64,000 nt of DNA, from positions 221-64,220 of the forward strand of contig CAYNOU010000001.1 of assembly GCA_964398885.1 (NCBI GenBank), given 5' to 3'. Shown here piece after piece: positions 1 to 21,919 of this stretch (position 1 is its first letter; every line of letters begins with the position of its first letter). Source of the DNA: an uncultured Candidatus Cloacimonadota bacterium. Lineage in GTDB: Bacteria; Cloacimonadota; Cloacimonadia; JGIOTU-2. The translations under genes were made by a program, and so were the position numbers. The notes beneath the pieces were generated by a model. The model was not told the origin of the DNA and ran no database searches. It saw only the letters and a list, made by a program, of their open reading frames with translations.

Positions 1-1
1 T

Positions 2-643
2 TCACATGGAGGCGGTGCTGCAGGAAATGTTGAATACCCCGCACAGCCAGTTCCAGCAAACGAGCCAGCCACAATAACATTCACTTCTCAAGACACTTGT
101 AAATCAGTTGAACTTCTCTGGAATACAATTAAAGGCAATGAGTTTAAATCTACTTGTATGAATTTTATAGACAGCACCCTATATTCATATGCAGCTGAAA
201 TCCCCGGACAGCCTGAAGGAACTATCGTCTATTTCTACATTACTGCATCTGATACCTCTGACTCAGTTTCATACTTTCCTGAAAATGCTCCAAAAGAACT
301 ATATCAGTATGAATATAAAGTTGAAACTCTTAAAGCAGTTCTTAAAGTTCCTCATCACACATTCTGTCCTGCTTTAGGCGAAAAATTTGAAATTCAATTC
401 CATTCTCGTACTAATGATAAAATAATTCTAAGATTATATAATTGTGAGGGCAAATTAGTCAACACATTTAAAAATGAGAATTCAAACGGGTTAAATACAA
501 TAGAATGGGATGGTAGGGATGAAACCTGGAATACTTTGCCCCCTGGACTATATATTTGCCATCTTGAAGTAATAGATAGAGAAACTGGCAAAACAAAGAC
601 AGATACAGCACCAATCGTTATTGCCGTTCCACTAAAAGATTAA
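2..643 (+). CDS. 5'-truncated secreted/surface protein with FlgD-Ig/T9SS-like C-terminal beta-sandwich
   Basis: The frame is open from the window edge to the ATG at 158, with no stop in codons 2-157. The listed 158..643 ORF is therefore probably the tail of a longer gene. The C-terminus 'KFEIQFHS..KIILRLYNCEGKLVNTF..IEWDGRD..LPPGLYICHLEV' has the strand pattern of FlgD-Ig/T9SS sorting domains. Confidence 0.6.
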   Translation, partial: SHGGGAAGNVEYPAQPVPANEPATITFTSQDTCKSVELLWNTIKGNEFKSTCMNFIDSTLYSYAAEIPGQPEGTIVYFYITASDTSDSVSYFPENAPKELYQYEYKVETLKAVLKVPHHTFCPALGEKFEIQFHSRTNDKIILRLYNCEGKLVNTFKNENSNGLNTIEWDGRDETWNTLPPGLYICHLEVIDRETGKTKTDTAPIVIAVPLKD

Positions 644-997
644 AGATAAAAGATGAAAAATTTCAAATCTCAAATAACAAATGACAAATAAATTCCAATC
701 CCCGATTAAATCGGGGACAAATTCCAAAAGAATGGCTTGTCCCGATGAATCGGGGGACGAATGTCGAGATAAAGAATAACAAGCCGATGTAGAAGTAACA
801 CGGAACTCTGTTCCGTTCCGTTCAGGCTCGATGCCTGACCGAGACTAACTGTTTAATGAAACTCTGGTTCATAAGTAACGGAGCAGAACCCCTTCTGACA
901 GATCTGTCTCCCGATATATCGGGAGACAAGACGGACTATGCGGAGAAACAGATTACAACAGAGACAATGATTAAAAATGAAAGATTAAAGACTAAAG
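644..997. repeat. Intergenic mosaic of short palindromic modules (exemplar tract)
   Basis: Back-to-back hairpins are tccccgat-taa-atcgggga (699-717), gtcccgat..tcgggggac (739-758), acggaac-tct-gttccgt (800-816) and tcaggc-tcgat-gcctga (822-838). Two perfect palindromes follow: gacagatctgtc (897-908) and the 22-nt gtctcccgatatatcgggagac (906-927). The same stems recur in many other spacers. Confidence 0.85.
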
Positions 998-1339
998 ATG
1001 GACAAAAGAAGTTTAAAAATAGCATATCAACTTAAAAAAGATATTGAGAAAGAAATATCCAAAGGATCCACCTCTGGTGGAAAAGTAATTGATATGCGAA
1101 TTTTTGGTTCCCGCGCAAGAGATGACTTCCAAGAAGATTCTGACTTAGATATTTTTATAGAATTAGAGGAAAGCAATCCAGAAATCCGTAAACTGATTGA
1201 CCATCTGAGCTGGGAAATCGCTTTTGAAAATGACTTAATTATAATGACTCTAATTCACTCTAAAGATGAAGTAGAGAATGGAATTTATAAATACACCCCA
1301 ATCTATAGAAGCATAGTAAGAGATGGAATTGTAGTATGA
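998..1339 (+). CDS. Minimal nucleotidyltransferase (MNT) antitoxin, pair 1
   Basis: 'FGSRARDDFQEDSDLDIFIE' is the GS-X10-DxD Pol-beta-type NTase signature. The stop overlaps the start of the downstream HEPN gene (ATGA at 1336-1339). Confidence 0.85.
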   Translation: MDKRSLKIAYQLKKDIEKEISKGSTSGGKVIDMRIFGSRARDDFQEDSDLDIFIELEESNPEIRKLIDHLSWEIAFENDLIIMTLIHSKDEVENGIYKYTPIYRSIVRDGIVV

Positions 1340-1737
1340 ATGATATTAATCTTACCTTAAAAAGATATAGATTGGAGCAATCTGAAAAAACTCTAAAGGA
1401 TGCAAAAGTTCTTGGGAAAAATCAGGGGGAAAATTTTAGTATAATAAATAGATGCTACTACTCTATATTTTATTCTGTTTTAGCATTATTAGTAGGCACT
1501 GATTTTGTTGGTTCAAAACATCATGGAGTTATTTCTTACTTTGATAAAAACTTTATTAAAAATGGAATATTTACAAAGGAGTTATCTGAAATTATTCATA
1601 GAGCATTTAAGATGCGAAATGTTAGTGACTATGATGAATTTATTGAATACTCTGAAAATGAGGTTGAAGCTTTAATAAATGATACAGAAAAATTTATTGG
1701 AACTATAAGAAATTTCATTGAAGGATCAAGTAAATAA
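1336..1737 (+). CDS. HEPN domain protein (putative toxin), pair 1
   Basis: 'NRCYYSIFYSVLALL...SKHHGVISYFDKNFIKNG...MRNVSDY' is the typical PF05168-type HEPN pattern. The gene has a 4-nt overlap with the MNT gene. Confidence 0.8.
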   Translation: MNDINLTLKRYRLEQSEKTLKDAKVLGKNQGENFSIINRCYYSIFYSVLALLVGTDFVGSKHHGVISYFDKNFIKNGIFTKELSEIIHRAFKMRNVSDYDEFIEYSENEVEALINDTEKFIGTIRNFIEGSSK

Positions 1738-1748
1738 AACAACTTATT

Positions 1749-2066
1749 ATGGATAAAAGAAGTTTAGAAATTGCTCATCAGCTAAAAAAATATATTGAAA
1801 AAGACCTAAATATTATTGATATGCGCATCTTTGGTTCTCGCGCAAGAGATGACTTTGAAGAGGACTCTGACCTTGATATATATCTGGAACTTGAGGAAAA
1901 TAATTCTGAAATAGAAGATAAGATTTTTCATATAGTTTGGAAAATTGGGTTTGAAAATAATTTAGTAATTACTACGATTATCTTCACAATAGATGAACTC
2001 GAAAATGGACCAATGAAATTTTCACCAATTTATAAAAACATTATGCGAGAAGGTGTAGTAGTATGA
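1749..2066 (+). CDS. Minimal nucleotidyltransferase (MNT) antitoxin, pair 2
   Basis: 'FGSRARDDFEEDSDLDIYLE' is present. This is a paralog of 998..1339, with the same N-terminus 'MDKRSLxIAxQLKK'. Confidence 0.85.
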   Translation: MDKRSLEIAHQLKKYIEKDLNIIDMRIFGSRARDDFEEDSDLDIYLELEENNSEIEDKIFHIVWKIGFENNLVITTIIFTIDELENGPMKFSPIYKNIMREGVVV

Positions 2067-2464
2067 GACAAGAAAAGCTTGAATTAATAAAATATCGTTT
2101 GGAACAGTCAGAATCAAGTTTAAAAGATGCGGAATTCCTCCTTGAAAATAAAAGGAGTGGTTTTTCTGTAATAAATAGATGCTATTATGCAATATTCTAT
2201 TCAGTTTTAGCATTATTAGTTGACCAGAAATTCATCGGTTCAAAACACTCAGGGGTCATAGCTTTCTTTGATAAAGAGTTTGTAAGCAAGGGTTTATTCC
2301 ATAAAAAATATTCTAAAATTTTTCATAAAGCTTTTGATATGCGAGGTAAAAGCGATTATAAAGAGTTTATAGAATATTCATATGAAAAAATAAAATTATT
2401 GCTTTCACAAGCAAAAGAATTTGTAAATGAAGTAAAAAAGTTTGTAATGAAAGGTTACCAATGA
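2063..2464 (+). CDS. HEPN domain protein (putative toxin), pair 2
   Basis: This is a paralog of 1336..1737 ('NRCYYAIFYSVLALL..SKHSGVIAFFDKEF..MRGKSDY'). It overlaps the MNT stop at 2063-2066. Confidence 0.8.
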   Translation: MRQEKLELIKYRLEQSESSLKDAEFLLENKRSGFSVINRCYYAIFYSVLALLVDQKFIGSKHSGVIAFFDKEFVSKGLFHKKYSKIFHKAFDMRGKSDYKEFIEYSYEKIKLLLSQAKEFVNEVKKFVMKGYQ

Positions 2465-3333
2465 GAAAAATTTTAATAACAATATTTGTATTTATGCTGA
2501 GCACATCAGTATTTGCTAACATAGAATCCAATATTTTTGGCGATTATGAACCATCAGCAAGAGCACGAGGAATGGGCGGAGCATTTATCTCAAGTTGCAA
2601 TGACGCTGATGCTATTTTTTATAATCCTGCTGCCTTAGATATTGCAACTGCGGGAGTTAATACAGGTTATGCGAAACTATTTGGGAATGACTTTCAGATT
2701 TTGAAAACAGGTGCACTTGCTTTTCATCTGCCCAAATTTGGCACGATAGCTCTTGGAATAAAAAAAATGGGCATTGAATATCAGGATGTTGAATTGGAAA
2801 GTGAAGGAACTTATTCTCTTGCCCACTCATTTCTTCTTATTGGTGATATTCACTCAAAATTATATCTGGGATATACAGTAAATCTGAATTACATTTCTTT
2901 TGGAGAGACTGTCGGGGGATTTGACCCGGGCGAAGAATCTGTATTCGGACTGGATTTTGGTGCGCTTGCTATTCTCCATCAAAGAACTAAGATTGCCTTT
3001 GCGGTCAAAAATATAAACAACCCATCAGTGGGAAAAGGCAGAACATGGGACTTGCCACAGCTCTTGACAATTGGCATTGCATATCAGCCATATCACGGAG
3101 TTACAACCGAATTGGATTTGGAACAGAAATTTTCCGAAGAGACAAAAATTAATTTTGGTATTGAATTTGAGATAGTAGATAATTTTTGGTTGAGGACTGG
3201 TGCTTCAACTTATCCAAATAGTATCTCTGGTGGCATGGGGTTTCTAATCAAAGGTGTTAAATTTGATTATGGAATAAATACACATCCAGTATTGAACTCC
3301 ACACATCATTTTGCAATAGGGTATCAATTCTAA
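2461..3333 (+). CDS. Outer-membrane beta-barrel protein, FadL/PorV/PorQ-like
   Basis: A signal peptide is present. The N-terminal 'SARARGMGGAFISSCNDADAIFYNPAAL' motif is typical of FadL-fold/PorV-family barrels. The protein has an aromatic-rich alternating pattern and ends '...HHFAIGYQF'. Its start overlaps the HEPN stop. Confidence 0.6.
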   Translation: MRKILITIFVFMLSTSVFANIESNIFGDYEPSARARGMGGAFISSCNDADAIFYNPAALDIATAGVNTGYAKLFGNDFQILKTGALAFHLPKFGTIALGIKKMGIEYQDVELESEGTYSLAHSFLLIGDIHSKLYLGYTVNLNYISFGETVGGFDPGEESVFGLDFGALAILHQRTKIAFAVKNINNPSVGKGRTWDLPQLLTIGIAYQPYHGVTTELDLEQKFSEETKINFGIEFEIVDNFWLRTGASTYPNSISGGMGFLIKGVKFDYGINTHPVLNSTHHFAIGYQF

Positions 3334-3450
3334 CTGATAGCCACAATCCCCAATTGAATTGGGGACACAAAGGTCACTAAAAATATTCTCTTATATTCTT
3401 AGTGTCTTTGGGACTTAGTGGTGATAAGAAATTTTATATTTGAGGATATT

Positions 3451-3753
3451 ATGAAAAAAAAGGAAAAAGAAGAATCCTCTGCTCGTTCAACATTAATAAA
3501 AGGATTTATAAAGCTCTTTTTTAACTTTATTAATCATGCTATTAAAGATTGGGAGAATAAATTTAGCTCAAAAGGATATAAAGAATTATCTAAAAAATAT
3601 GATGTCTTTGAAAAACGCTTCTATAAAGATATTCAGGAAATGAAAAACAAAATTGAAAAACTTACACTAAAGGTATACTGGCTAAACTTCATAGCAATTA
3701 TACTTTTGATTTGTGTTGTGATTGAACTTATTTTATTAATTAAATTATTTTAG
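3451..3753 (+). CDS. Hypothetical coiled-coil protein with C-terminal TM helix
   Basis: I prefer the ATG at 3451, preceded by gagga, over the GTG at 3418. The C-terminal 'WLNFIAIILLICVVIELILLIKLF' is hydrophobic. I recognise no family. Confidence 0.4.
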   Translation: MKKKEKEESSARSTLIKGFIKLFFNFINHAIKDWENKFSSKGYKELSKKYDVFEKRFYKDIQEMKNKIEKLTLKVYWLNFIAIILLICVVIELILLIKLF

Positions 3754-3923
3754 CCACCTGCCTTCGTCAAACTATGGCAAGGCAAGCAGATTTGCACAGA
3801 TAGACACAGATATGTATTTAGGATAAAATTGAATAAACTATCAGTTAGAATCCGTGGCGAAAAGAAGAAACAAATCCGTGCTAATCTGCGAAAATCCGTG
3901 GCAAAGAATAAAATCGGGCTAAA

Positions 3924-6542
3924 ATGAAAAAAATAATATTCTTTCTTTTGTTCATATTTATAACTATCTCTCTGCCAATCTTTGCTCAAAACGGGCAATT
4001 AGACCTGAATCAGGCAAGCTTGAATGAGATAAAATCTCTGCCAATTACCGAAAAACAAGCTGAAGATATCTATTACTACCGAACTTACCAGAAATTTTTT
4101 GAATCTGTTTATGAACTGCGTGATATAAAAAGCATTGACCAAATAACCTTCAATAGAATAAAATCTTTGGTGAAGATCTTACCATACACAGACTACGATG
4201 AAGTAGCACAAAGAAGAGACCAGATTTATTATCTCTTGCGAAGCCTGGCTTCAAATGAAGGCTCTCAAGAAGGAATATCAGATTTGTGGGGTGACTTGCT
4301 AATATCCCCTATAAATATCAATACTGCTAACTTTCACGCTTTGCTGAATATACCTATTGTAACTCCAAATGATGTAAAGTCAATACTTTTACAACGGAAA
4401 GTAGGAGATTTTTCAGATTATAGAAGTATGCGGATGTCACCAGGTTTGACACATTATGGAGCAACAAATCTAAAAAATTATGTTATATACTATACTCCTG
4501 AAAAAAAAGGTAGATGGCATTTTAATTATCGATTAAAATTTAATAACTCTCCTTATTCAGAAGAATTAACTGAAGTTTTACGAGAAAGCTTTGTTCCAGA
4601 CAGCACAAACGAAAAATTCTCTATGTGGGGACGCTATCATCTGGATAACGCAGCACCAGAAATCTCTCATAAATTTAGAGCAAGGATGGAAGATTGGATT
4701 AACCTGGAATTCGGCTCAATCTTCTTTTTGAAGAAAGGTGAAAATCGTGATTTGAACTTCTTAGAACTCACTAATGAATGCTCAGAAACTATAAAAGATA
4801 ACTCAAAAACCAGCTTTACAGCAGATATCAAGCCCATAAAAACAAAAGTAATATTAGGAAATTATCGCGCTACTTACGGACAGGGACTGGTTATGGAAAA
4901 TACTGATTATTTTGATAGACGCAGAACAGGATTAGGTTATACAAAACGAGTCTTGGGAATTTTCCCTGACCTATCCCCTACCGAAGAATTTGCTTTAAAA
5001 GGTGGTGCTGTTGAATTTAATAATAATTTTCTGAATGCCTCTGTTTTTTATTCAAATGATAAAAAAGATGCAGTTGTCTGGGACAGCAATGATAACGACT
5101 CTCTTGATGTTGAAGATGACCTATTCTATTATATAATCTCAAAACCACGATTTTCTAATCACGAATTGGAAAGTGCTGAAGAATCCTTTAATCAATACCG
5201 TCCGGGCTTATCTTATTCATTGCCAGAAATTTTGATGGCACCACGCAAAGATATCTTAAAGGAAGTATTAACAGGAGGACATATAGAAGTATCTCCTGCT
5301 ATTGGCACTCATTTTGGAATTACTGCTTATGAAATAGAATACGACAGAAATTTTAAGGGTCCTTCTGCTAACTATAATTCTATTGGAAATTACCTTTTGG
5401 CTAATCCTGAAAAATATACAAAAAAGATTAAAATAACAGATTCTGAAATCTCATCCTTATACTCAACAATATATAAGATAGATACTCTAACCTACGAAAA
5501 AAATTATCGCAGAGTTTATGGTTTTGATTGGCAAACTACTCTCAACAATCTATCACTTCAAGGTGAATATGCAGAATTAGAAGTAAATGGCAAACCAGCA
5601 AAATTAGGCGATGACCCAAAAGCAATTGTGGCAAGTGCTTATTTAGGTTTTGAGAACCTAAACTTTCTTATGCTATACAGAAACTATGATTTAGCCTTTG
5701 ACAATCCCTATGCTCGCCCATTTGCAGAACACGAAAGATTTGATGGTACTATTCTTGAAAAACAATACTATTTGAAAAATCCACTCGTTTCTGAAATATA
5801 TTACAACTCTCCTTGGTCACAACCAGAAGAAGGGATTTATATTGAATCAAGATTTAAGTTTCATCGTCAACTAACTCTAACTAAAGCATATCTTGACATC
5901 TGGAAAAGAAAATCCGATGGAAGAAGAAGTATCCGTTTTCAAGGAGAATTAGATTATAGACCTATTTATCAGGTAAGCATCAGATTGAAAGAAAAACTGC
6001 AAACCAATCGCTCTGAAGACACCTCTGCAAGGTCAGTTTCCAAAACAAGCGAGACAACTCTTCGCCTGATAAACTATCTCACAAATAGAGATAAATTAGA
6101 GATTGAATACCGTTTTAATAAGGTCTGGATGGCTCCATACACTTCTCTTACAAATAGTGCAGAACCAGGCGAAGTTATTGTTCCAACTGCTGATGTCTTG
6201 AATCACGGTGATTATATCGCTGCAAACTATACACACAATTTCACAGATTATTTCCGAATTGAAGGCTCATTCTTGTTCTGGAATGGTCACGGAATCAGTC
6301 ACTGGGATTGGGAAGATATGGAGATTGATTTTATGGGCAGTGAAGGGATGAAATATTGGTTCACAATTTATGATAGAATATCTAATCATCTGGCTATCTC
6401 GTTCAAATATAAGGTTAAACATTATAGAGACGAAGAATTATACCTTAGAAAATATAATGAACCTATTGAGGGACAAAATTATGTTCCACAAACTAAACAC
6501 AAGGAAAGTTCCATAAGATTGCAGATTGATTGGAATTTTTAA
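3924..6542 (+). CDS. Secreted protein with two ComEA-like helix-hairpin-helix motifs fused to a large putative outer-membrane beta-barrel
   Basis: The signal peptide is 'MKKIIFFLLFIFITISLPIFA'. The HhH-type motifs are 'LDLNQASLNEIKSLPITEKQAEDIYYYR' and 'ININTANFHALLNIPIVTPNDVKSILLQRK'. About 650 aa of Y/F/W/N-rich sequence follows, ending 'RLQIDWNF' (terminal Phe). Confidence 0.55.
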   Translation: MKKIIFFLLFIFITISLPIFAQNGQLDLNQASLNEIKSLPITEKQAEDIYYYRTYQKFFESVYELRDIKSIDQITFNRIKSLVKILPYTDYDEVAQRRDQIYYLLRSLASNEGSQEGISDLWGDLLISPININTANFHALLNIPIVTPNDVKSILLQRKVGDFSDYRSMRMSPGLTHYGATNLKNYVIYYTPEKKGRWHFNYRLKFNNSPYSEELTEVLRESFVPDSTNEKFSMWGRYHLDNAAPEISHKFRARMEDWINLEFGSIFFLKKGENRDLNFLELTNECSETIKDNSKTSFTADIKPIKTKVILGNYRATYGQGLVMENTDYFDRRRTGLGYTKRVLGIFPDLSPTEEFALKGGAVEFNNNFLNASVFYSNDKKDAVVWDSNDNDSLDVEDDLFYYIISKPRFSNHELESAEESFNQYRPGLSYSLPEILMAPRKDILKEVLTGGHIEVSPAIGTHFGITAYEIEYDRNFKGPSANYNSIGNYLLANPEKYTKKIKITDSEISSLYSTIYKIDTLTYEKNYRRVYGFDWQTTLNNLSLQGEYAELEVNGKPAKLGDDPKAIVASAYLGFENLNFLMLYRNYDLAFDNPYARPFAEHERFDGTILEKQYYLKNPLVSEIYYNSPWSQPEEGIYIESRFKFHRQLTLTKAYLDIWKRKSDGRRSIRFQGELDYRPIYQVSIRLKEKLQTNRSEDTSARSVSKTSETTLRLINYLTNRDKLEIEYRFNKVWMAPYTSLTNSAEPGEVIVPTADVLNHGDYIAANYTHNFTDYFRIEGSFLFWNGHGISHWDWEDMEIDFMGSEGMKYWFTIYDRISNHLAISFKYKVKHYRDEELYLRKYNEPIEGQNYVPQTKHKESSIRLQIDWNF

Positions 6543-6626
6543 TTATTTGGAGTGCGAAAACGAATCCTGTCCCCGCGGACGCAGGGATAATCGGGATGAA
6601 CTTTTCGCAAAAAATTGGAGGATAAT

Positions 6627-6836
6627 ATGCAAAAAATAAGAAAAAATCTATCTCCTGAAATTGTCTTTCGTGATGGTAGACCCATTGCGGTGATTTTAGA
6701 TATTATTAAATATCAAGAAATATTGGAAAGATTAGAGGATATAGAAGATTTGAAGATGTTGGAAGAGATGAGAAAAAAGCCTCTTAAATTCAAAAAGTTA
6801 AATGATTTCTTACGGGAATATCAATCTAATGTATAG
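6627..6836 (+). CDS. Type II antitoxin (Phd/YefM- or RelB-like)
   Basis: The ATG at 6627 lies 5 nt after ggagg. 'RPIAVILDIIKYQEILERLEDIEDLKMLEE' is a typical antitoxin N-domain plus acidic tail. The gene overlaps the toxin start. Confidence 0.7.
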   Translation: MQKIRKNLSPEIVFRDGRPIAVILDIIKYQEILERLEDIEDLKMLEEMRKKPLKFKKLNDFLREYQSNV

Positions 6837-7083
6837 TATTTATCTTGAATGTGCAGCAGAAAGAGACTTAAAACGGCTTACCTCAAAACTTTTTTACCGT
6901 ATTATTTCTAAAATAAAAGCTTTAGCAGAAAATCCAAGGCCATCTGGCTGTCGTAAGATTACTGGCTCAAAGGCTGATTGGCGTATTAGAATTGGACACT
7001 ATCGTGTTATTTATGAAATTGATGATACTGAGAAGCGTATAAAGATAATGCGAGTAAGACATAGAAAAGATGTGTATAGATAA
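6829..7083 (+). CDS. RelE/ParE-family toxin
   Basis: 'NPRPSGCRKITGSKADWRIRIGHYRVIYEIDDTEKRIKIMRVRHRKDVY' is the classic RelE/ParE C-terminal pattern. The ATG at 6829 overlaps the antitoxin stop (atgtatag). Confidence 0.8.
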   Translation: MYSIYLECAAERDLKRLTSKLFYRIISKIKALAENPRPSGCRKITGSKADWRIRIGHYRVIYEIDDTEKRIKIMRVRHRKDVYR

Positions 7084-7114
7084 ATTTTTAAGATTACAAT
7101 CTTTTGGAGGAAAG

Positions 7115-8449
7115 GTGAAAATTAAAATAATTATCATATTATTATCCATTCTCATTTTTATTGCCATAAACCTATCAGGTGCGTCTCTTTTTGACAGAGA
7201 TACAGGAGAAGAAATAAATTGTTTCTCTGCTCGTTCCCTTGCAATGGGCTCTGTCGGAGTTGCTTCAAAACAGGGACTAACAGCATCACTAAATAATCCT
7301 GCCACTTTAGGACTGCTTCATAATAGATTTGGTATTCAATTAACATCAAATATTACAAAAAATGATGAAGACAGAGCATACCCGATTTATGATTCCTTTG
7401 ACTCATATATAGATGATGCGGTTTATGTCTCTAATGCTCATTTCTTTGACAAATATTTTGGTGGGCTTTATTATAATTGGAATCTTGCAAAATCTATGAA
7501 ATTAACTACAGCATTCAATTATGCTCCAATATATGATTTCAATTTCACATATGTTGAAGAGATGCGAAATAATGAAAATACCGATAATGATAATGAGCCA
7601 AAGAAAATTGCAAATAACACCTATAAAGGTGAGGGAAATATTTCTGCCTATTCTCCTTCGATTGCTTTGACTTTTAAAAATCAAAATAGCATTCTTTCTA
7701 CTCTTTCATTTGGATTTAGTGCATCCTATTTAAATGGGGAAAATGAAATAGACTCTACAATCATTTTCACAGATTGGGCAAAAGAGCAAATGACAAATAA
7801 GCCTGACAGCATACCCGACATTGAATATAACATAAAAAATAAATATTCTGGTATGTGCTATCAAGGCGGATTTATCATTGGATTAGGAGAAAGAGTCCAT
7901 CTTGGCTTTTCTTATACTCATAAAACTGAATTGACAAAAGAATATAAAACCAATTCTGATACAGTATGGGCTGACACAACAATTTATTATCCAACAAAAT
8001 TTGGAATTGGATTTGAATATCATCCGAGAAATATCTGGGATACAAAATTTAGTGTGGAAGCCAGATTAGTAAAATGGAGCGATTACGATGATTCGTATTA
8101 TGATGTAATTGAATATTCCGCAGGAGTTGAACATGTTATGCATAACGGCATTCCTATTCGGCTTGGATTCAGATGTCAACCTTCTGGCAGAGATAAAGAG
8201 GTCACATTAACTGCTTTTTCTGCTGGAACTGCAATAAAATTACCATACAATCTTATGCTTGATTTAGGTGCTGAAGTTGGAAAAAGAAATTATACTGAAA
8301 AAGACCTGTTTCCCGATGGGTATTATGCTAATGAAAACTTATGGGATTATAATCCTCAATATGATGAGCTTCCTGAAGACAGAAAGAATTTTGATAAGAT
8401 AAAAGATTTTATGATAAATGCAATGGCAACGATTTCGTGGAGATTTTAA
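7115..8449 (+). CDS. Outer-membrane beta-barrel protein, FadL/PorV-like
   Basis: I prefer the GTG at 7115 after ggagga, which gives signal peptide 'VKIKIIIILLSILIFIAINL'. The protein has the motif 'SARSLAMGSVGVASKQGLTASLNNPATLG' and ends 'ATISWRF'. Confidence 0.55.
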   Translation: MKIKIIIILLSILIFIAINLSGASLFDRDTGEEINCFSARSLAMGSVGVASKQGLTASLNNPATLGLLHNRFGIQLTSNITKNDEDRAYPIYDSFDSYIDDAVYVSNAHFFDKYFGGLYYNWNLAKSMKLTTAFNYAPIYDFNFTYVEEMRNNENTDNDNEPKKIANNTYKGEGNISAYSPSIALTFKNQNSILSTLSFGFSASYLNGENEIDSTIIFTDWAKEQMTNKPDSIPDIEYNIKNKYSGMCYQGGFIIGLGERVHLGFSYTHKTELTKEYKTNSDTVWADTTIYYPTKFGIGFEYHPRNIWDTKFSVEARLVKWSDYDDSYYDVIEYSAGVEHVMHNGIPIRLGFRCQPSGRDKEVTLTAFSAGTAIKLPYNLMLDLGAEVGKRNYTEKDLFPDGYYANENLWDYNPQYDELPEDRKNFDKIKDFMINAMATISWRF

Positions 8450-8451
8450 GA

Positions 8452-8514
8452 TTACGGGTTACGGGTTACGAGTTACGAGTTAGGAGTTAGAGGTAAGAGG
8501 TTAGAAGTTAGAGG
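8452..8514. repeat. Degenerate heptamer tandem repeat (9 units) abutting the methyltransferase start codon
   Basis: The units are ttacggg ttacggg ttacgag ttacgag ttaggag ttagagg taagagg ttagaag ttagagg, followed by tt-ATG at 8517. The 3' units supply SD-like GGAG/GAGG. Confidence 0.9.
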
Positions 8515-8516
8515 TT

Positions 8517-9842
8517 ATGAGTAAGCAGGCAGAAGGGATTGTAAAAAAGATGTTTGAAAATATTGATATTGATAAGGAATGGTCTTTTTCAGAATTCAGT
8601 CGCGCAGAAACTGCAAAATGGACTCATTGCTACCATCGGTATCCTGCCAAATTTATTCCACAATTAGTAGAAAAATTGATGAATGAATATATTAACTCAA
8701 AAAATGCTCATATCAATGACCCATTTATGGGAAGTGGCACAACGATTGTCTCAGCTATTGCAAGGGGTTACAAAGCGAGTGGAACAGACATAAATAAGAT
8801 AGCCTATTTAATGACAAAAGTAAAAGCAACTCCAATCGAACCTGATTGTCTAAAAAATAAAATTCAAGAATTTTTATACCAAATAGAAAAGATTGAGGAA
8901 GATGATGGAATTTTTTCAGCTACTAATAATTTAGAACCTCTTATTCCAGAAAGACATATAGAAAGAATAAACTATTGGTTCAATGAAAAAAACAAAATTA
9001 AATTAGGAAAAATATTAAGAATTATATACAATGAAAAAGATGAAACAACAAGAGATTTCTTTAAAGTTGCTTTTAGCCATATTTTAAAAAATTGTTCTAT
9101 TTGGTTGCAGAGCAGCACAAAACCAACAAGAGATTTAAAAAAAAATCCTATTTCTCCTTGCAAGGCATTATCAAGACATCTAAGAAAAATGGAAAAAGGT
9201 AATCGCTCCTTTTATGATGTGGTACCCAACTATGTTAAAAATAGAATTAACAATTACCTTAATATTAAATGTGATGATGCCAAAAGACAACCTGTAAAAG
9301 ATAATTCTGTTGATTTAATTATATCCTCAAGTCCTTATGTAACAAGCTATGAATATGCTGACTTACATCAACTTTCAACGATTTGGTTGGATTTGGCAGA
9401 TGACTTAACAGGTTACAAAAAAGAGTTTATAGGCACATCTTACAAAAAGTATGAAAACAAAAGTTTACGAAGCAAAATCGCTATAGATATTGTTGATAAG
9501 ATGTCTACAGAAAGTCCAAAGATGGCAAAGGAAATTGAAGCGTTTTTTATTGATATGGCAGAAATCTTTGATGAGAGTTTCAGAATTTTAAAACCAACTG
9601 GCAGATGCTGTTATGTCATTGGCGATACAAGATTGAAGGGTATAAATATACTAAATGCCGAAGTTTTTGCTGAAAGTTTACAGTATTCTGGTTTTAAATT
9701 AGATAGAATAATTAAAAGAGAAATTCCTTCAAAGATATTACCACAAAAAAGAGATGAGAAGACAGGAAGATTTGCCAATAATAACGATGCAAATTCCGAA
9801 GCATATCCAGTTGAATACATTATTATCGGGAGAAAGAAATGA
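8517..9842 (+). CDS. DNA methyltransferase (N6-adenine or N4-cytosine; not m5C)
   Basis: The AdoMet motif I is 'NDPFMGSGTT'. About 215 aa later comes the catalytic-type motif 'DLIISSSPY' (x-S-P-Y in place of (D/N/S)PPY), then 'ILKPTGRCCYVIGD'. The I...TRD...IV order suggests an alpha-like class. Confidence 0.8.
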   Translation: MSKQAEGIVKKMFENIDIDKEWSFSEFSRAETAKWTHCYHRYPAKFIPQLVEKLMNEYINSKNAHINDPFMGSGTTIVSAIARGYKASGTDINKIAYLMTKVKATPIEPDCLKNKIQEFLYQIEKIEEDDGIFSATNNLEPLIPERHIERINYWFNEKNKIKLGKILRIIYNEKDETTRDFFKVAFSHILKNCSIWLQSSTKPTRDLKKNPISPCKALSRHLRKMEKGNRSFYDVVPNYVKNRINNYLNIKCDDAKRQPVKDNSVDLIISSSPYVTSYEYADLHQLSTIWLDLADDLTGYKKEFIGTSYKKYENKSLRSKIAIDIVDKMSTESPKMAKEIEAFFIDMAEIFDESFRILKPTGRCCYVIGDTRLKGINILNAEVFAESLQYSGFKLDRIIKREIPSKILPQKRDEKTGRFANNNDANSEAYPVEYIIIGRKK

Positions 9843-10525
9843 TCGATTTTAATTATATTAAAAATAGATATTATGAATTAAAAACCAAGAATGAAGGATA
9901 TAATTTTATTGGAAAGATATTCAAAGAAGTTGAAGAAAAATATAAGATTGAAGCAGAAGAACGTGGAAAAAATCCACAGCAATCTTGGAATTCTTGGAGT
10001 GGTAAAGCTTTACAGAATTTAATAACCGAATTAGTAAAAGAACACATATTAAATTGTCACTATCAAGTCAACTTAACATCTGATGATGCTTTACGTGTTA
10101 AGAAATTAAATACAGAACTGGATCAAGTAAGAAGAAATATTGAAGTCTTTTATTCCCAATATTCTATTGTTCCCGATGCTGATATTATTGTTTATTCAAA
10201 CATAGATTATAAAGTAATATGTGTTTTTTCATGCAAAGCAAGTTTGAGAGAGCGTGTAGCACAAGCTGCCTATTGGAAAATAAAATTAACCCAATCAAAT
10301 GGAACAAAGAATATTTTCTATTATCTTGTTTCTACAGACAAAGACAAAGATTTTGTTATAAAAAATGGAAAGATAAGTAGAAATAGAATTATTGTTGAAG
10401 AAGGTGAACTGGATGGTGCTTACATATTAAGAGAAATTCATGAAAGTTCCATGGTTAAAAACTTTTCAAATATTTTTAATGATTTAAACAGAATATTTGA
10501 AGAATGGTTCGATATTAATAAATGA
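9839..10525 (+). CDS. Putative type II restriction endonuclease
   Basis: The gene has a 4-nt overlap with the upstream MTase. A PD-(D/E)xK-like arrangement 'VPDADIIVY...VFSCKASLRER' is present. I recognise no specific family. Confidence 0.5.
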   Translation: MIDFNYIKNRYYELKTKNEGYNFIGKIFKEVEEKYKIEAEERGKNPQQSWNSWSGKALQNLITELVKEHILNCHYQVNLTSDDALRVKKLNTELDQVRRNIEVFYSQYSIVPDADIIVYSNIDYKVICVFSCKASLRERVAQAAYWKIKLTQSNGTKNIFYYLVSTDKDKDFVIKNGKISRNRIIVEEGELDGAYILREIHESSMVKNFSNIFNDLNRIFEEWFDINK

Positions 10526-10630
10526 AAAAATCATTAATATTTACTCTACAAAACCTCAATAATAAAAAGTTTCTACTTAAAGGAAGTAAAAGTATTGTAT
10601 ATAGTATTATGATATAAAGGAATTATTAAA

Positions 10631-10876
10631 ATGATACAATTCAATGAAGAATGGAAAAAATTACAATATGAAATAATCTACAATAAACCACAAATAGATG
10701 GTCCTTATCCTCAAGAGATTGTAGATAAAAGAGAATTATTATTATATGCTCAAGTGGAATTAGAAAAAGCTCAAACCTCATATGATAATAAAAATAATAA
10801 CTTATGTAAATTTCACTCAAAATTATACTCATTAATAATGAAACATTACTATAAATGGATATCTGAAAATGCATAA
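10631..10876 (+). CDS. Small hypothetical protein translationally coupled to the second methyltransferase
   Basis: The 81-aa ORF has a stop at 10874-10876 overlapping the ATG at 10869 of the next gene. It has no obvious HTH. Confidence 0.35.
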   Translation: MIQFNEEWKKLQYEIIYNKPQIDGPYPQEIVDKRELLLYAQVELEKAQTSYDNKNNNLCKFHSKLYSLIMKHYYKWISENA

Positions 10877-11561
10877 TAAAAAAAATAAATTAATAATTGA
10901 ATCTACAACCCTCTGGGATTTTCCAACCCAAAATTATGGTAACATAAAACATGGCGATAATAAATATTCTGGCGTAACTCCTGCCTTTATTGTTTGGAAT
11001 CTTATCCAAAGATATACAAAAGAAGGGGATTTAGTGGTTGATCCTATGTGTGGAAGTGGAACAACTATTGATGTTTGCAATGAAGAAAATCGAAATGTTC
11101 TGGGCTTTGATATAGTCCCCTATAGACCTGATATAAAGCAAGCAGATGCGAGAAAGTTACCAGTAGATAACGAAATTGCCGATTTTATCTTTATTGATTC
11201 TCCTTATTCAGATAATATAAAATACAATGACCATCCTGATAATATAGGAAATATATCTTGCGAAAATCCAAGATTTTTTGAAGAATTAAATAAAGTAGCA
11301 AAAGAGCTTTTTAGAATTCTTAAACCTGATAAATATATTGCATGGCTTATTGGTGATCAAGCAAAAAAGAAACAATTCGTTCCTGTAGGATTAAAGTTAT
11401 ACTCAATATTGAATAAATATTTCACTCCTGTTGATATTGTTTGTGTTACAAGACACAATCAGACATCTAATACAAGAATTTGGGAATACAGAGCAAAAAA
11501 ATATAATTTCTATCTTAGAGGCTTCAAATATCTGATAATAATGAAGAAGAAAGAAATATAA
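10869..11561 (+). CDS. Second DNA methyltransferase (N6-A/N4-C type, compact)
   Basis: 'DLVVDPMCGSGTTIDVC' (motif I) is followed about 45 aa later by 'DFIFIDSPYSDN' (again x-S-P-Y) and 'ILKPDKYIAWLIGD'. The N-terminus has 'TLWDFPTQ'. Confidence 0.7.
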   Translation: MHNKKNKLIIESTTLWDFPTQNYGNIKHGDNKYSGVTPAFIVWNLIQRYTKEGDLVVDPMCGSGTTIDVCNEENRNVLGFDIVPYRPDIKQADARKLPVDNEIADFIFIDSPYSDNIKYNDHPDNIGNISCENPRFFEELNKVAKELFRILKPDKYIAWLIGDQAKKKQFVPVGLKLYSILNKYFTPVDIVCVTRHNQTSNTRIWEYRAKKYNFYLRGFKYLIIMKKKEI

Positions 11562-11656
11562 ATTTTAACCCCCCTTTTAAAAATCCCCTCTAAAGAGGGG
11601 TGGATGCCGATGAAATCGGCAGACGGGGTGTGTAATTTATAATAAAGATAAAAAAA

Positions 11657-13333
11657 ATGAAAAAAATATCTATCTTACTTATATTAATTTTAGTCTTTTC
11701 TTCATCACTCTACTGTGATGAAATTAGACTCAATATCCTTTTCACAAACGACATTCACGGTGGAATTGATGCTGTGCCAGCCACCTTTATGAATCCGGAA
11801 TTCCCACCCCCACTTGGCGGAGGCGCATCTGCTGCGGCTATTATCAAATATGTCCGCAAAAAAGCAAAAGAAAATGGCGAACCTGTTTTGCTTCTTGACG
11901 CAGGAGACTTCTTCCAGGGTCATCCAATTGGCACAATGAGTAATGGTGAAGCAATTATAAAATATATGAATATGGTAAAATACGATGCAATGACCATTGG
12001 AAATCACGAGTTTGACGCTGGATATGCACAACTGAAAAAGACTTTATTTCTGGCTGAATTTCCAATTGTCTGTGCTAATATTGTTTTTGAGAATACAGGA
12101 GAAATCATCCCAGAAGCTGTCCCATATATCATGAAAGATATTCAAGGCGTAAAACTTGCCATAATCGGTTTATGTACAGAAGAAACTCCAATGATGAGTT
12201 TTCCTGAACATGTTAAAGGATTAAAATTCTTACCTGTTGCTCCAACCTTAAAAAAGTATATCAAGGAAGTTAAAGATAAAGGAGTAGACTTAATATTGGT
12301 TTTGGCTCATCTTGGAATTCCTTATGATGTCCAATCTGCTTATCAGCACGATATTGTAGAAGGACATATTAATGACCCTAACAAATATTGGCCTGATAAT
12401 GCTATTGACCTTGCCTACAAAGTTCCCGGAATTGACCTCTTTTTCGCGGGACATATTCATAAAGGATACAATGAGCCCTGGGAAGAGCCGAATAATCATA
12501 CTCTGCTTTTCCAAAATTATGCCTATGGCTCTAATATCGGGCATGTGATAATCAAGATAGACAAAGAGACCAAAACCATTTCTGGCTATGAACTGCCCGC
12601 TTATATTGATGGAGATTTGCTTACTTTATTTACTGAGGAATTTATTCCAGATAAAGAAGTAAAAGAAAAGATAGATGCTATGCAGATAGAAGCAGAAAAG
12701 GGAATGGATGAAATTGTCGGAGAAGCAGTCATTCATCTCTCAAGGGGTGTTGGTGCACAAAGTTTAATAGGCAATTTTGTTATGGATGCGATGCTTGAAG
12801 AAGTTGGAGCAGACTTTTCATTTCTTAATCTCGGTGGAGTAAGAGATGATATCAACAAAGGTCCCGTAATTTATCGTGATGTATTTGATGTTCTCCCTTT
12901 TGAAAGCCAGATAGTTACACTCAATATCTCTGGAGCATTGCTTAAAGAAATTCTGGAAATTAGAGTTTCTTACGGACATCAAGGATTACGAATTGCAGGC
13001 GGAGAAGTGGTCTATAATAAAAACCTCCCAAATTTCCAACGAGTTACAAAATTGAAAATAGCAGGCAAGGATTGGGACCCGAATAAAATCTATAAGGTTG
13101 CAACTACTGACTTTCTTATGGCTGGTAATGCGGGACTAACCATCTTAACAGAAATTCCACAACAGCAAATCACTTATAATTATATCATTATGCGGGATGC
13201 CTTAGCAAATTATTTTAGAAGGCACAAAATTGTTACTGCCAAAATTGATAATAGATGGATAATGGATATCACTTCTCAACCAACAAAAGAGATTGCTGAG
13301 TTTAATAAGAGAAAGACATCTTCTTTCAGATGA
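11657..13333 (+). CDS. Secreted bifunctional metallophosphatase/5'-nucleotidase (UshA-like)
   Basis: A signal peptide is present. Calcineurin-like motifs are 'NDIHGG', 'DAGDFFQG', 'GNHEFD' and 'GHIH'. A C-terminal 5'-nucleotidase-type domain follows. Confidence 0.85.
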   Translation: MKKISILLILILVFSSSLYCDEIRLNILFTNDIHGGIDAVPATFMNPEFPPPLGGGASAAAIIKYVRKKAKENGEPVLLLDAGDFFQGHPIGTMSNGEAIIKYMNMVKYDAMTIGNHEFDAGYAQLKKTLFLAEFPIVCANIVFENTGEIIPEAVPYIMKDIQGVKLAIIGLCTEETPMMSFPEHVKGLKFLPVAPTLKKYIKEVKDKGVDLILVLAHLGIPYDVQSAYQHDIVEGHINDPNKYWPDNAIDLAYKVPGIDLFFAGHIHKGYNEPWEEPNNHTLLFQNYAYGSNIGHVIIKIDKETKTISGYELPAYIDGDLLTLFTEEFIPDKEVKEKIDAMQIEAEKGMDEIVGEAVIHLSRGVGAQSLIGNFVMDAMLEEVGADFSFLNLGGVRDDINKGPVIYRDVFDVLPFESQIVTLNISGALLKEILEIRVSYGHQGLRIAGGEVVYNKNLPNFQRVTKLKIAGKDWDPNKIYKVATTDFLMAGNAGLTILTEIPQQQITYNYIIMRDALANYFRRHKIVTAKIDNRWIMDITSQPTKEIAEFNKRKTSSFR

Positions 13334-13443
13334 GATTGTATAAATCCACTCCTGCCTGTCCGTTCTTTGGCGAGAGATGGGTGTCCCGATTCATCGGGAT
13401 AAGTTAAGTTACAACACGATTGTGTCACATTATGGAGGCTTCA

Positions 13444-14706
13444 ATGGACATAAATAAAATTAGATATCAGGGCGACCTACAAGACACAAAAGATTTATAT
13501 GAAGTCTATAAAGTAAAACAGATTATAAGTTCTCACGAAGAAATATTGAAAGAGCATATTTCTTTTAGAGATGAACTTCTTGCAAATTCCGTCCGATTAA
13601 CATCTATTATATCTCCAAGAATTCGCAAAATTATTGAGAAAGTTAAGACGATATTTGACATCAAGGAAAATGTTGAATTCTTTTCTCTAAACAACAATAG
13701 TTACAATGCTTTTGCTTTCAAACAGAAATCTAACATAAGCATTGTCTTCACTTCAGGATTATTAGAAAACTTTTCTGATAATGAAATCCTGTTCGTATTG
13801 GGGCACGAAATTGGACATATCCTGTTTAACCACAATCGGCTTTTGCTTTTATACAATCCAAGTAAAAGAAAAATCACTTTTTTGCCAATTCTTGCGGAAA
13901 AAAAATTCTTAACATGGCAAAAAAAGGCAGAAATCAGCTGTGATAGAGCAGGTCTGGTTGCTTGCATGAATTATGAAACTGCTATCCAAAGTCTGCTCAA
14001 AATTTCGTATGGACTTACAGAAAAGAATCTAAACTTCAATTTACCAGAGCTAATGAGCCAATTGGATGACATTGCTCACTCTGAATATCTCTCACAGCTC
14101 AGCACAGCCACCCATCCCCTATTGCCAGTTCGTCTTAAAGCCCTTGAATTATTTCATAATTCAAAACTATTCTCTAAAAAGGGTAAAATCTCCCCAGAAA
14201 AACTTTCAGAAGAAGTTGATAAATTAATCGGGCTTACAAAATTCTATCCACGCAATAAAACTAAAGAACAAATGATGAAATTCATTGCTTCTGGTGGTGT
14301 CTCTATTATTGCAGCAGATAGAGAAATCAATATTGAAGAAATAAAAAGCCTGGTAAAAATCTTAGCAGATGTGTTCACAGATGACCCTGAAAAAGAGATT
14401 GTTTATGACAAAGAAAAAGTGGAAGCACAGTTAAAAAAATCTGCAAAATATCTTAAAGAAAAAGGCACTGATTACGACAGATTCTATGCGATGCATTTTT
14501 TGACAGTTATTGCTCTTTCTGATGGAAAATATACTATCAAAGAGAAGAATATGCTGCTTAAACTCGCAGAATCAATTGGCTTTTCTAAAGATGACGCTAT
14601 GGGTGTCGTCTGGAAAACTTTGCAACAAAATGGCATTAATATTGATGTGCGACTTAACGAAATAGCACAAAATGTAAAAGAACATTATGCTGATTATCTA
14701 AAATAA
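13444..14706 (+). CDS. M48-family zinc metallopeptidase-like protein with C-terminal TerB-like domains
   Basis: 'VLGHEIGHILFNH' contains HExxH. The C-terminal 'MHFLTVIALSDGKYTIKEKNMLLKLAESIGFS' is TerB-like. I prefer the ATG at 13444, 5 nt after ggagg, over the TTG at 13420. Confidence 0.65.
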   Translation: MDINKIRYQGDLQDTKDLYEVYKVKQIISSHEEILKEHISFRDELLANSVRLTSIISPRIRKIIEKVKTIFDIKENVEFFSLNNNSYNAFAFKQKSNISIVFTSGLLENFSDNEILFVLGHEIGHILFNHNRLLLLYNPSKRKITFLPILAEKKFLTWQKKAEISCDRAGLVACMNYETAIQSLLKISYGLTEKNLNFNLPELMSQLDDIAHSEYLSQLSTATHPLLPVRLKALELFHNSKLFSKKGKISPEKLSEEVDKLIGLTKFYPRNKTKEQMMKFIASGGVSIIAADREINIEEIKSLVKILADVFTDDPEKEIVYDKEKVEAQLKKSAKYLKEKGTDYDRFYAMHFLTVIALSDGKYTIKEKNMLLKLAESIGFSKDDAMGVVWKTLQQNGINIDVRLNEIAQNVKEHYADYLK

Positions 14707-14935
14707 TCTATATATAAATCCTATTAAACTTCGGAGGTTTTATGAGCTGTCAGGGACCATTCCCTGACATTTCTTGCCAGAGGACAGATCCTTTGGAAAA
14801 GATATTCAGTGGTTGGTTTAAGTTCGTCATGGAGTGGTCCATGACGACTCCTCGGAAAATGGCATTAATATTGATGTGCGACTTAACGAAATAGCACAAA
14901 ATGCAAAAGAACATTATGCTAATTATTTAAAATGA
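14627..14935. repeat. 80-bp direct duplication of a gene's 3' end flanking a 149-bp hairpin-module cassette
   Basis: Copy 14627-14706 (the last 26 codons plus stop of the M48/TerB gene) matches 14856-14935 with 4 mismatches by eye, including stop TAA vs TGA. The intervening 14707-14855 consists of palindromic modules. Confidence 0.85.
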
Positions 14936-14961
14936 TAGTAAACCAAAAGAGGCAAATTATT

Positions 14962-15714: not shown

Positions 15715-15752
15715 ATTTATCAGATAAATTCTATAAAATATGAAGGTATTAA

Positions 15753-16361: not shown

Positions 16362-16422
16362 CTTCTACAGTTGATAAATAAAAAATTAAATATTTTATTC
16401 CTGATACATCCGGAAAAATAAT

Positions 16423-17319: not shown

Positions 17320-17400
17320 TTTAATATTCATATGAAAATCTCTTGCCACAGAGTCACACCCGTTCTCCGTCCAGATTATATCGGGACTGCGAAGGGTGAA

Positions 17401-17596: not shown

Positions 17597-17685
17597 TTCG
17601 TGTTAAGTATAATCGGTGACTACATCTATGTTTAATTATTTTATAAAAAATTTATTTAAAACTACTTTTTTTAAGAAAGGAAAAA

Positions 17686-19896: not shown

Positions 19897-19926
19897 AAAA
19901 ATATTTTTTAAACAAAAGGGGGAGAA

Positions 19927-21845: not shown

Positions 21846-21919
21846 TTTATTTGACATTAGGAATTCGGATTTAGAAATTAATTTATTTTTTCCGGTTTTC
21901 CCGGATTAGGTGGTAAAAA

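Follow-up and report, generated by a model that had tools for sequence, protein, structure and literature searches.

The intergenic spacers of a 64,000-nucleotide stretch of an uncultured Candidatus Cloacimonadota genome (assembly GCA_964398885.1, contig CAYNOU010000001.1, positions 221 to 64,220; hereafter the window) are probably mosaics of several small non-autonomous hairpin families of the repetitive extragenic palindrome (REP) type and its paired form (REPIN), stacked and nested like the bacterial interspersed mosaic elements (BIMEs) of Escherichia coli. Judged from the hairpins that flank the transposase genes, three of these families can be matched to a cognate clade of REP-associated tyrosine transposases (RAYTs): F2 with the MxLRGRS clade, F3 with the MRSSYKFS clade, and the unit GGAGTGC...GCACTCC with a third clade, the gene of which was found only in sister genomes.

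The genome is a draft metagenome-assembled genome (MAG) of 2.56 Mb in 126 contigs with 33% GC, in which the window corresponds to C1:221-64220. It was aligned to G002, a same-genus genome of 1.89 Mb pieced together from retrieved stretches, over 1.64 Mb at 88.7% identity. The other relatives compared were G001 and G004 (same genus), G006 and NIOZ-UU1 (L017), and RAYT loci were collected from 20 genomes of the same family. The open reading frames (ORFs) came from our own crude gene calling, which defines intergenic and intragenic in all genome-wide counts. As these calls reach too far into the spacers, the intergenic enrichment is an underestimate.

Hairpins were counted when perfect, with a stem of at least 6, a loop of 3-8 and at least four G/C per arm. 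Genome-wide, their density is about 10-fold higher in intergenic DNA (2.44/kb) than in ORFs (0.235/kb), and the spacers hold 731 of them as against 15-23 (about 18) in shuffled spacers. Intergenic DNA matches itself over 100.7 kb of 305 kb, compared with 6.3 kb after dinucleotide-preserving shuffling; about one third of it matches other intergenic DNA, and about one fifth is found at three or more places. The 354-nt exemplar spacer (644-997), folded as single-stranded DNA, reaches -54.8 kcal/mol versus -28.6 ± 4.0 for its shuffles (z = -6.5).

Over-representation against a null was one of the checks suggested in a preliminary description of this DNA, and both counts bear it out. That description also held that almost every spacer is built from a shared vocabulary of palindromes. 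The sharing is real: 22 of the 30 window spacers of at least 50 nt match at least two other spacers, 17 of them match at least five, and 63% of the spacers of at least 100 nt genome-wide have matches in at least two others. The quantifier was nevertheless too strong, and a perfect GC-rich hairpin is present in only 22-32% of spacers. Likewise, hairpin families are present, but part of the vocabulary consists of non-palindromic arrays of heptamer or octamer words, at 8450-8516, 18685-18711 and 21695-21850.

The first two of these arrays (TTACGGG/TTACGAG/TTAGAGG) lie immediately 3' of stop codons, and the one at 18685 keeps its position across three same-genus genomes while its word sequences differ. 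In the third, an 8-nt pyrimidine unit (TTCTCGTC/TTCTCATC/TTCTTGTC) is repeated about 19 times in tandem in the spacer ahead of the gene at 21920; it belongs to no palindrome family.

The hairpins fall into the following families:

F1: TCCCGAT-N3-5-ATCGGGA, about 305 copies
O1: TCCGCC-N3-GGCGGA and relatives, 74-110 copies
O2 (CCCCAAT): TCCCCAAT-TNA-ATTGGGGA, 38 copies
O3 (CCCCGCG): TCCCCGCG-NNN-GCGGGGA, 32 copies
O4: interleaved CTTGGC/CTAGGC/CTCGGC units, 79 copies
F2: [C/T]GTCA[G/T/C]GGA-N4 (GTCAGGG/GTCATGG stems), 57 copies
F3: C[A/T]TT[A/C]CCAAGC-N4, 21-32 copies

A TCC...GGA foot is found in 339 of 754 intergenic hairpins (45%), and in F1 the half-sites TCCCGAT are conserved while the loops are variable. 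Of the 57 F2 hairpins, 32 stand in pairs with a spacing below 200 nt, and the loops are inverted in 12 of the 16 pairs, a REPIN-like arrangement. Inverted pairing, at a spacing of about 80-115 nt, is also seen for the GGAGTGC half-sites.

The search for a Y1 (RAYT-type) transposase, likewise suggested at the outset, was positive. The profile PF01797 gave 12 matches in the genome, none of them on the contig holding the window: seven intact RAYT-type genes, four genes of the IS200 (insertion sequence 200) type and one split RAYT remnant. With the NCBIfam model REP_Tyr_transpos (NF047646, cut-off 80 bits), five of the RAYTs score 85-110 and two 64-65; the two IS200-type genes, of four, that were scanned with transpos_IS200 (cut-off 55) score 56 and 70. 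Measured against the first of the set, the RAYT proteins show 23-56% identity; across the alignment of all seven, H-x-H and Y-[IV]-x-x-N-P do not vary. A profile built from all seven reaches E. coli TnpA-REP (PDB 4ER8) with E = 1.7e-15, the HUH motif and the Y-x-x-x-NP tyrosine being aligned; a phmmer search of the PDB with a single RAYT sequence gave no match, and 4ER8 was reached only by the seven-sequence profile. RAYT matches number 5-17 in most genomes of this family that are more than about 85% complete and 0-4 in other families of the class.

The four IS200-type genes (G000:C9:46885-47301, C9:48587-49030, C66:5533-5976 and C8:31784-32284, where G000 is the present genome) are diverged paralogues (45-80% identical) and not identical copies of an insertion sequence; two of them lie 1.3 kb apart. 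Their flanks carry CCCAC[A/G]A...T[C/T]GTGGG hairpins in 2-3 copies each.

The link between enzymes and hairpins comes from the flanks of the RAYT genes. The same hairpin type stands on both flanks of the loci C8b, C11, C76, C30a, C30b and C15, and around several RAYT genes the flanking units are in direct, not inverted, orientation. The RAYTs C8:18176-18715 (present genome) and D62 (G002) have GTCAGGG/GTCACGG/GTCATGG hairpins 3-45 nt away, and C11 and D14, which are 96.6% identical, have C[AT]TTACCAAGC hairpins 15-25 nt away. Across the 20 genomes of the family, F2 hairpins flank the MxLRGRS clade at nine of nine loci, and F3 hairpins (CTTTACCAAGC/CATTCCCAAGC, CCAAGC stem) flank the MRSSYKFS clade at eight of eight. 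Given the nine of nine loci, the F2 modules of the window (14742-14858, 33703-33756 and 51080-51163) have identified cognate enzymes elsewhere in the genome. By family resemblance, the CCCAAGC hairpins of the window (25325-25350 and 28001-28041) would likewise have a cognate enzyme encoded elsewhere.

The third clade, MLK[IK]Y..HTPAHL (the MLKIYQHTPAHL enzyme in G004), is present in G004 and G006. In both genomes the flanks of its genes hold a compound unit, GGAGTGC[T]GAAACGA...TCGTTTTCGCACTCC, whose apices carry F1-type hairpins. The gene was not found in the present genome or in G002 (best tblastn identities 25% and 40%, respectively). The GGAGTGC half-sites number 28 in the present genome and 33 in G002, as against 0 for the reversed control, and one copy is the window tract 6549-6620. 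Apart from the GTAG tag, F2 and F3 display the features of REP and REPIN elements that were examined, as far as can be told from sequence.

The modules located in the window are listed below, with the strand where one applies.

699-717: F1 hairpin, TCCCCGAT-TAA-ATCGGGGA; the orthologous G002 copy has an additional 23-nt hairpin in its loop
739-758: F1 hairpin, GTCCCGATGAATCGGGGGAC, with one additional G; kept in G002
800-838: a pair of minor-family hairpins, ACGGAAC-TCT-GTTCCGT and TCAGGC-TCGAT-GCCTGA; G002 has other modules in place of the second
903-965: 63-nt module with the F1 hairpin TGTCTCCCGATATATCGGGAGACA (905-928); cleanly absent from the orthologous G002 spacer (63 vs 0)
3347-3365: O2 hairpin, TCCCCAATTGAATTGGGGA; no Y1 gene adjoins this family
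6549-6620, forward strand: one half of the compound REP unit GGAGTGCGAAAACGA...TTTTCGCA, whose F1-type apex contains a nested CCCCGCG hairpin; cognate RAYT clade in G004 and G006
11585-11621: two hairpins, CCCCTC-TAAA-GAGGGG and TGCCGAT-GAA-ATCGGCA (F1-like)
13384-13399: F1 hairpin, TCCCGATTCATCGGGA; in the orthologous spacer, G002 shows 4-5 hairpins and G001 none
14742-14858, forward strand: F2 doublet (REPIN-like), TGTCAGGGA-CCAT-TCCCTGACA (14748-14769) and TCGTCATGGA-GTGG-TCCATGACGA (14824-14847), with inverted loops
17341-17601, forward strand: composite module cassette, with a CCCCGCG hairpin at 17488-17505 and CTCGGC-ACCAA-GCCGAG at 17526-17542
25325-25350: F3-type hairpin with an 11-bp stem, CATTCCCAAGC-CCCA-GCTTGGGAATG; related to the flanks of the MRSSYKFS RAYT clade
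28001-28041: nested structure, an O2 hairpin (28014-28032) within the stem CATTCCCAA/TTGGGAATG of an F3-type hairpin
28068-28124, forward strand: extended F1 unit, GGCTCGGCGCCTCTGTCTCGGCTCCCGATATATCGGGAGACGGGCAGACGGG; the C40 RAYT gene has the same unit in its surrounding long repeats
29371-29450: word-armed long inverted repeat, GCCACAGAGGCACTGAG...CCTCTGTGTCTCCGTGGC; a module class distinct from the short GC-rich hairpins
33686-33830, forward strand: 145-nt block with an F2 doublet (33703-33726 and 33733-33756, inverted loops) and a GACACCAT hairpin module (33803-33823); 8 nt in G002
36970-36984: F1 hairpin, CCCGAT-GAA-ATCGGG
40670-40713, forward strand: GACACCAT-type module, 89% identical to 33793-33836; kept at the orthologous G002 spacer (94%, 53 nt)
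44433-44815, reverse strand: word-armed cassette that adjoins the start codon of the gene ending at 44432; TTTCAT follows both ends
48196-48217: degenerate hairpin of the CCCCGCG family, TCCCCGCGTCCGCAGGGA; the unaligned length of the spacer is 262 nt vs 90 nt in G002
51080-51163, reverse strand: F2 module with a hairpin at 51091-51114, TCGTCATGGACCACTCCATGACGA; inverted copy of 14775-14858

The individual repeats named in the preliminary description were recovered. The copies at 3347-3365 and 28014-28032, given there as identical, are both TCCCCAATTGAATTGGGGA, and the TCCCCGCGTACGCGGGGA stem was found at 17488-17505 and 44549-44566, and in degenerate form at about 6570 and at 48196. The patterns of 18712-18737 and 27112-27137, described as the same, are one or two bases apart. 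The GTCATGG, GTCAGGG, GACACCAT and CTCGGC stems occur where they had been placed. The recurrent word GACGGGCAG is real too, as the 3' flank of the unit CTCCCGATATATCGGGAGACGGGCAGACGGG (28093-28124 and 44730-44761; family D12); with CTCGGC it forms the outer, imperfectly paired arms of the extended F1 unit at 28068-28124. Longer stretches are also shared: 17400-17601 and 44461-44662 are 95% identical, and 14775-14858 and 51080-51163 are inverted copies at 96%. The cassette at 44433-44815 contains a CCCCGCG hairpin (44549-44566), a CTCGGC hairpin (44587-44603), an F1 variant (44662-44677) and an extended F1 unit (44730-44761).

The modules are polymorphic between same-genus genomes, a comparison that had also been proposed. 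Among 501 junctions collinear with G002, 81 are filled here and empty there, 49 show the reverse, and 371 differ on both sides. The 12 window tracts syntenic with G002 include ten that differ, one that partly differs and one that is conserved (40670-40713); a thirteenth, 6549-6620, stands outside this tally, being covered by a long alignment block while its best short matches lie at other loci. In G002 the exemplar spacer has other modules at about 817-870, and the spacer orthologous to 17341-17601 measures 110 nt and has no GC-rich hairpins. The F2 doublet at 14742-14858 is missing from the same site in both G002 and G001, and the tract at 44468-44847 is matched by 97 nt in G002 and by about 60 nt of AT-rich DNA in NIOZ-UU1. 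Tracts absent in two or three relatives (G002 and G001, or G002 and NIOZ-UU1) are most simply read as gains in the present lineage. The 33686-33830 block, the 44468-44847 tract and the 14742-14858 doublet are best read as such gains. The earlier suggestion of relics of a REP/RAYT-like mobile system therefore holds for its REP/RAYT-like part, as two of the stem families flank RAYT clades, but the modules are not merely relics, since some tracts read as gains of the present lineage.

The polymorphic units are hairpins of 15-17 nt, double hairpins of 30 nt, extended hairpins of 33-63 nt and cassettes of 80-380 nt. Bare 15-17-nt hairpins occur alone as clean insertions or deletions (indels), with no cassette and no boundary ambiguity, which means no direct repeat or target duplication. 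The 30-nt double hairpins are likewise clean indels without a flanking direct repeat, and the loops of F1 and F2 hairpins are hit by insertions repeatedly. The hairpin units thus lack the target-site duplication that, together with terminal inverted repeats, is a criterion for the miniature inverted-repeat transposable elements of DDE transposons. We infer that seamless indels, together with a preference for single-stranded loops, are the expected product of HUH/Y1 'peel and paste' enzymes.

Family hairpins also occur far inside long ORFs, with 83 copies genome-wide. Polymorphic hairpin indels are multiples of 3 in 11 of 16 cases deep in ORFs versus 14 of 34 intergenic cases. As the intergenic indels show no such bias, the pattern is a selection filter that acts on the reading frame; the possibility that the inserted units are intrinsically multiples of 3 was rejected on the same count. 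Examples of intragenic hairpins are G000:C20:8240-8269, C18:24077-24091 and C2:59766-59781, and several are in-frame presence/absence differences with G002. Many of them lie 120-270 nt upstream of the stop codon in large secreted proteins, a region that we take to be the expected place of the C-terminal sorting domain of the type IX secretion system.

If the spacers are indeed REP/REPIN mosaics, the Y1 enzymes would act by binding hairpins that fold in single-stranded DNA, such as that of the replication fork. At the hairpin foot they would cut and rejoin, giving footprint-free excision and insertion in trans, like IS200/IS605 and TnpA-REP. The abundant TCCCGAT, TCCGCC, CCCCAAT and CCCCGCG families would owe their movement to a RAYT that has been lost or is missing from the assembly, to cross-recognition, or to passive carriage within larger cassettes. 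Any role as a terminator, an RNA stabiliser or a protein-binding site would be secondary.

Several observations weigh against the REP/REPIN reading. Most of the vocabulary (F1, O1, O2, O3 and O4) has no Y1 gene immediately adjoining it in the present genome or G002, and five RAYTs (C76, C30a, C15, C5 and C30b) have flank hairpins in 1-5 copies, with no dispersed family. The GTAG (or GGAG) foot tag is lacking in most families; GTAG was found only at the C15 flanks (GTAGCCCGAACC...) and in the C30b-type hairpin (GTAGAACGACC..., ...CCTGTGCTAC). The C40 RAYT has no orthologue in G002 and the F1 density is nevertheless equal in both genomes, at about 109 per Mb, so the link between F1 and C40 fails. 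Moreover, the ends of the larger cassettes described below duplicate 6-8 nt with TTCAT, the complement of the start codon, at gene starts; such duplications do not fit the Y1 mechanism and suggest a second process. The direction of gain or loss is unpolarised for most indels. Finally, a missing RAYT may reflect an assembly gap in the draft MAGs: the assembly is broken or masked in REP arrays, so that a RAYT or a REP array could be missing from it.

The candidate F1 as the REP of the C40 RAYT was rejected. Its copies on both sides of the gene lie within a duplicated block of about 350 nt and none is less than 200 nt from the gene; the closest hairpins are of the TGGTTCA...TGAACCA, CTTGGC and CTCGGC types. 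Runs of N break tandem arrays of REP units directly next to two RAYT genes (G000:C11:14414-14860 and C15:14873-15450).

The hairpins with the TCC...GGA foot (TCCCGAT, TCCGCC, CCCCAAT and CCCCGCG), near half of the vocabulary, could form a class of their own, although we put this forward tentatively and regard it as doubtful. They would be the smallest mobile DNA units known from bacteria, at 15-19 nt or 30 nt when doubled. They would insert seamlessly, prefer the loops of other hairpins (with nesting to three levels), be tolerated in frame in genes, and be mobilised in trans by an enlarged, varied set of Y1 enzymes or by an unrecognised enzyme without ever being linked to a transposase. If so, they would be a bacterial counterpart of the mitochondrial GC clusters and a second layer of parasitism atop ordinary REP/RAYT systems.

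The alternative that stands up best is that these same four families are not moved by Y1 enzymes and spread by another route, which we consider unlikely. They could be passengers of larger cassettes that recombine at conserved leader or start-codon sequences, they could depend on another enzyme, for example from the small nuclease-type genes in word-armed cassettes of relatives, or they could arise by hairpin-templated repair or gene conversion. The cassettes are the chief ground for this alternative. Many of the larger clean insertions are cassettes of 80-260 nt, the arms of which are inverted arrays of heptamer words (GCCAC[A/G][A/G]A[G/C]...GTGGC) and which carry small hairpins as internal cargo between ends with the TTCAT-containing duplications. 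ATG comes directly after the end motif (word)n-GTGGC-A(n)-GGATTTxCAx in all 20 of its copies, and in 15 of them it starts an ORF of at least 70 aa. The word-armed cassettes may be leader or ribosome-binding-site cassettes with gene starts as their target. Word-armed ends are present in the window tracts 44433-44815, 17320-17685 and 27938-28260. The absence of a Y1 gene next to these families in two genomes, the independence of F1 abundance from the C40 RAYT, and the small ORFs found between word arms in relatives, at sites empty here, also favour a route other than Y1. Against it, the bare 15-17-nt hairpins and the 30-nt double hairpins are standalone clean indels without direct repeats, the recurrent insertion into hairpin loops fits an enzyme acting on single-stranded DNA, and in G004 and G006 the REP unit flanking a RAYT has F1-type hairpins at its apices.

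One site with such a small ORF is the spacer between mutS and the next gene (window 43361-43396), where G002 (D49:6105-6591) and L017 have an insertion of 485-650 nt and the present genome is empty. In L017 the insertion contains a small reverse-strand ORF between (GGTAAAG)n word arms, with internal ATCTAACGGGGTAAA hairpins.

It is quite improbable that the modules are mainly transcript elements, that is, bidirectional intrinsic terminators or 3' hairpins that stabilise mRNA, maintained by selection and not by transposition. Stable GC-rich hairpins within an AT-rich genome would suit such a role, and the co-option of REPs for transcript roles is known elsewhere (PMC3733652). A tail was scored as T-rich when the 9 nt following the hairpin on one or the other side included at least 6 T; the background per single window of this kind is 9.4%. 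The CCCCGCG family is the sole one with a sizeable share of such tails (31%, on one side), but F1 (7%), TCCGCC (4%), CTTGGC (0%) and F2 (2%) fall below background. A scan of window positions 1-20000 for a consensus terminator gave 12 sites, compared with 9.3 ± 3.3 in shuffles. In tandem spacers the modules are placed uniformly, with a median relative position of 0.4-0.68 (about 0.5), and do not lie beside the stop codon. With no T tails and no preference for the 3' end of the gene upstream, they are not canonical terminators. Divergent spacers also contain them, at 1.9/kb versus 2.5/kb elsewhere, most tracts are not kept at the orthologous spacers of the 89%-identity genome, and 83 copies lie deep in long ORFs. 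Bidirectional termination, offered in the preliminary description as one possible role, is therefore not upheld as the general one.

That the palindromes are sites for a host DNA-binding protein (a nucleoid protein or a regulator) or paired DNA-uptake sequences, amplified by selection, is very improbable. In its favour, the TCCCGAT half-sites are conserved while the loops vary, and a ComEA-like helix-hairpin-helix protein is encoded at window 3924-6542. Against it stand the dozens of unrelated stems, the fast turnover at orthologous sites and the in-frame copies in genes. CCCGAT has 572 occurrences, about 305 of them in perfect hairpins, and base composition predicts about 213 per strand; the word is thus unenriched outside hairpins, and DNA-uptake sequences were rejected on that ground.

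Among the neighbouring genes of the window, MutS (40758-43397) has its best matches in Candidatus Cloacimonadota MAGs (85% in NIOZ-UU1 and 74% in Cloacimonas sp. 4484_140). Rfam covariance models at gathering thresholds had no match in the whole window, and ARAGORN found no tRNA and no tmRNA in it. At about 33700-33870 the gene orientation flips from forward to reverse and the cumulative GC skew is at its maximum, so that the site resembles a point of convergence or a terminus; its spacer is the one with the 145-nt hairpin block absent in G002. At 6812-7102 a segment of 289 nt is missing from G002, with a 4-nt overlap at the junction. It lies within a pair of small ORFs (6627-7069) that is toxin-antitoxin-like by size and position.

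The elements are alike the E. coli REP/BIME system with TnpA-REP (YafM; 4ER8; 'REPtron') in having short GC-rich intergenic palindromes arranged in mosaics and single-copy HUH/Y1 genes between their own palindromes. Unlike that system, the present genome has seven intact RAYTs and a remnant instead of one, the stems are perfect and short (6-12 bp) and mostly without the GTAG tag, several genes have flanks in direct orientation, and the commonest families have no adjoining RAYT. With IS200/IS605 (TnpA Y1, 'peel and paste') they share seamless indels without target duplication and, presumably, the recognition of hairpins by an HUH/Y1 enzyme. They differ in that the IS200-type genes are diverged here (70-80% amino-acid identity), with few flank copies, and in that the dispersed modules are gene-free.

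Rickettsia palindromic elements are roughly 100-150 nt long and are not known to have a transposase. The units described here are of 15-42 nt and, unlike those elements, mostly intergenic. What the two have in common, together with the intragenic REPs of Di Nocera et al. 2013 (PMC3733652), are in-frame palindromic insertions within protein genes. The same source describes CGTC-tagged REPs with an unpaired end tag, a class that "apparently lacks a dedicated transposase". F2 resembles that class in its form [C/T]GTC-A[G/T/C]GGA-N4-TCC..-GAC[G/A], with a CGTC/TGTC start, a 4-nt loop and mainly head-to-head dimers. However, CGTC pairs with GACG in the F2 stem and F2 flanks a RAYT clade at nine of nine loci, which makes its membership in the CGTC class doubtful.

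The REPIN-RAYT systems of Pseudomonas fluorescens and Stenotrophomonas (Bertels and Rainey 2011, PMC3116915; Nunvar et al. 2013, PMC3686654) likewise have several REP classes, each with its own RAYT, and inverted doublets. Nunvar et al. 2013 (PMC3686654) reported at most four RAYTs per genome and found that some REP classes persist in strains without the cognate RAYT while relatives keep the gene. The GGAGTGC unit is comparable, as it persists here and its RAYT was found in sister genomes only. Unlike those genomes, the present one has seven intact RAYTs and four IS200-type genes, with up to 17 matches in relatives, and its classes have fewer copies each (tens to about 300) and smaller units, which are nested.

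The departures from classical REP/RAYT systems are the mostly absent GTAG tag, the many RAYTs, the nested units, the intragenic copies and the dominant families without a linked gene. Our literature search found no description of REPs in Cloacimonadota, nor does the phylum appear in Quentin et al. 2018. The REP/BIME/REPIN-RAYT concept is well established, and the elements of Cloacimonadota extend it and do not overturn it.

For this organism, the repeated intergenic DNA turns over much faster than the genes. The repeats are open to misreading as regulatory RNAs, terminators or operators, they also enter genes, and they plausibly break MAG assemblies, with N runs in the repeat arrays beside two RAYT loci. 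With 5-17 RAYT matches in most of its more complete genomes, versus at most four in two large surveys of pseudomonads and stenotrophomonads, this family of Cloacimonadota offers a natural system for the questions of how many REP/RAYT pairs can coexist and how REP families outlive their transposase. It also lends itself to a test of whether very small hairpins can be mobilised without a linked gene.

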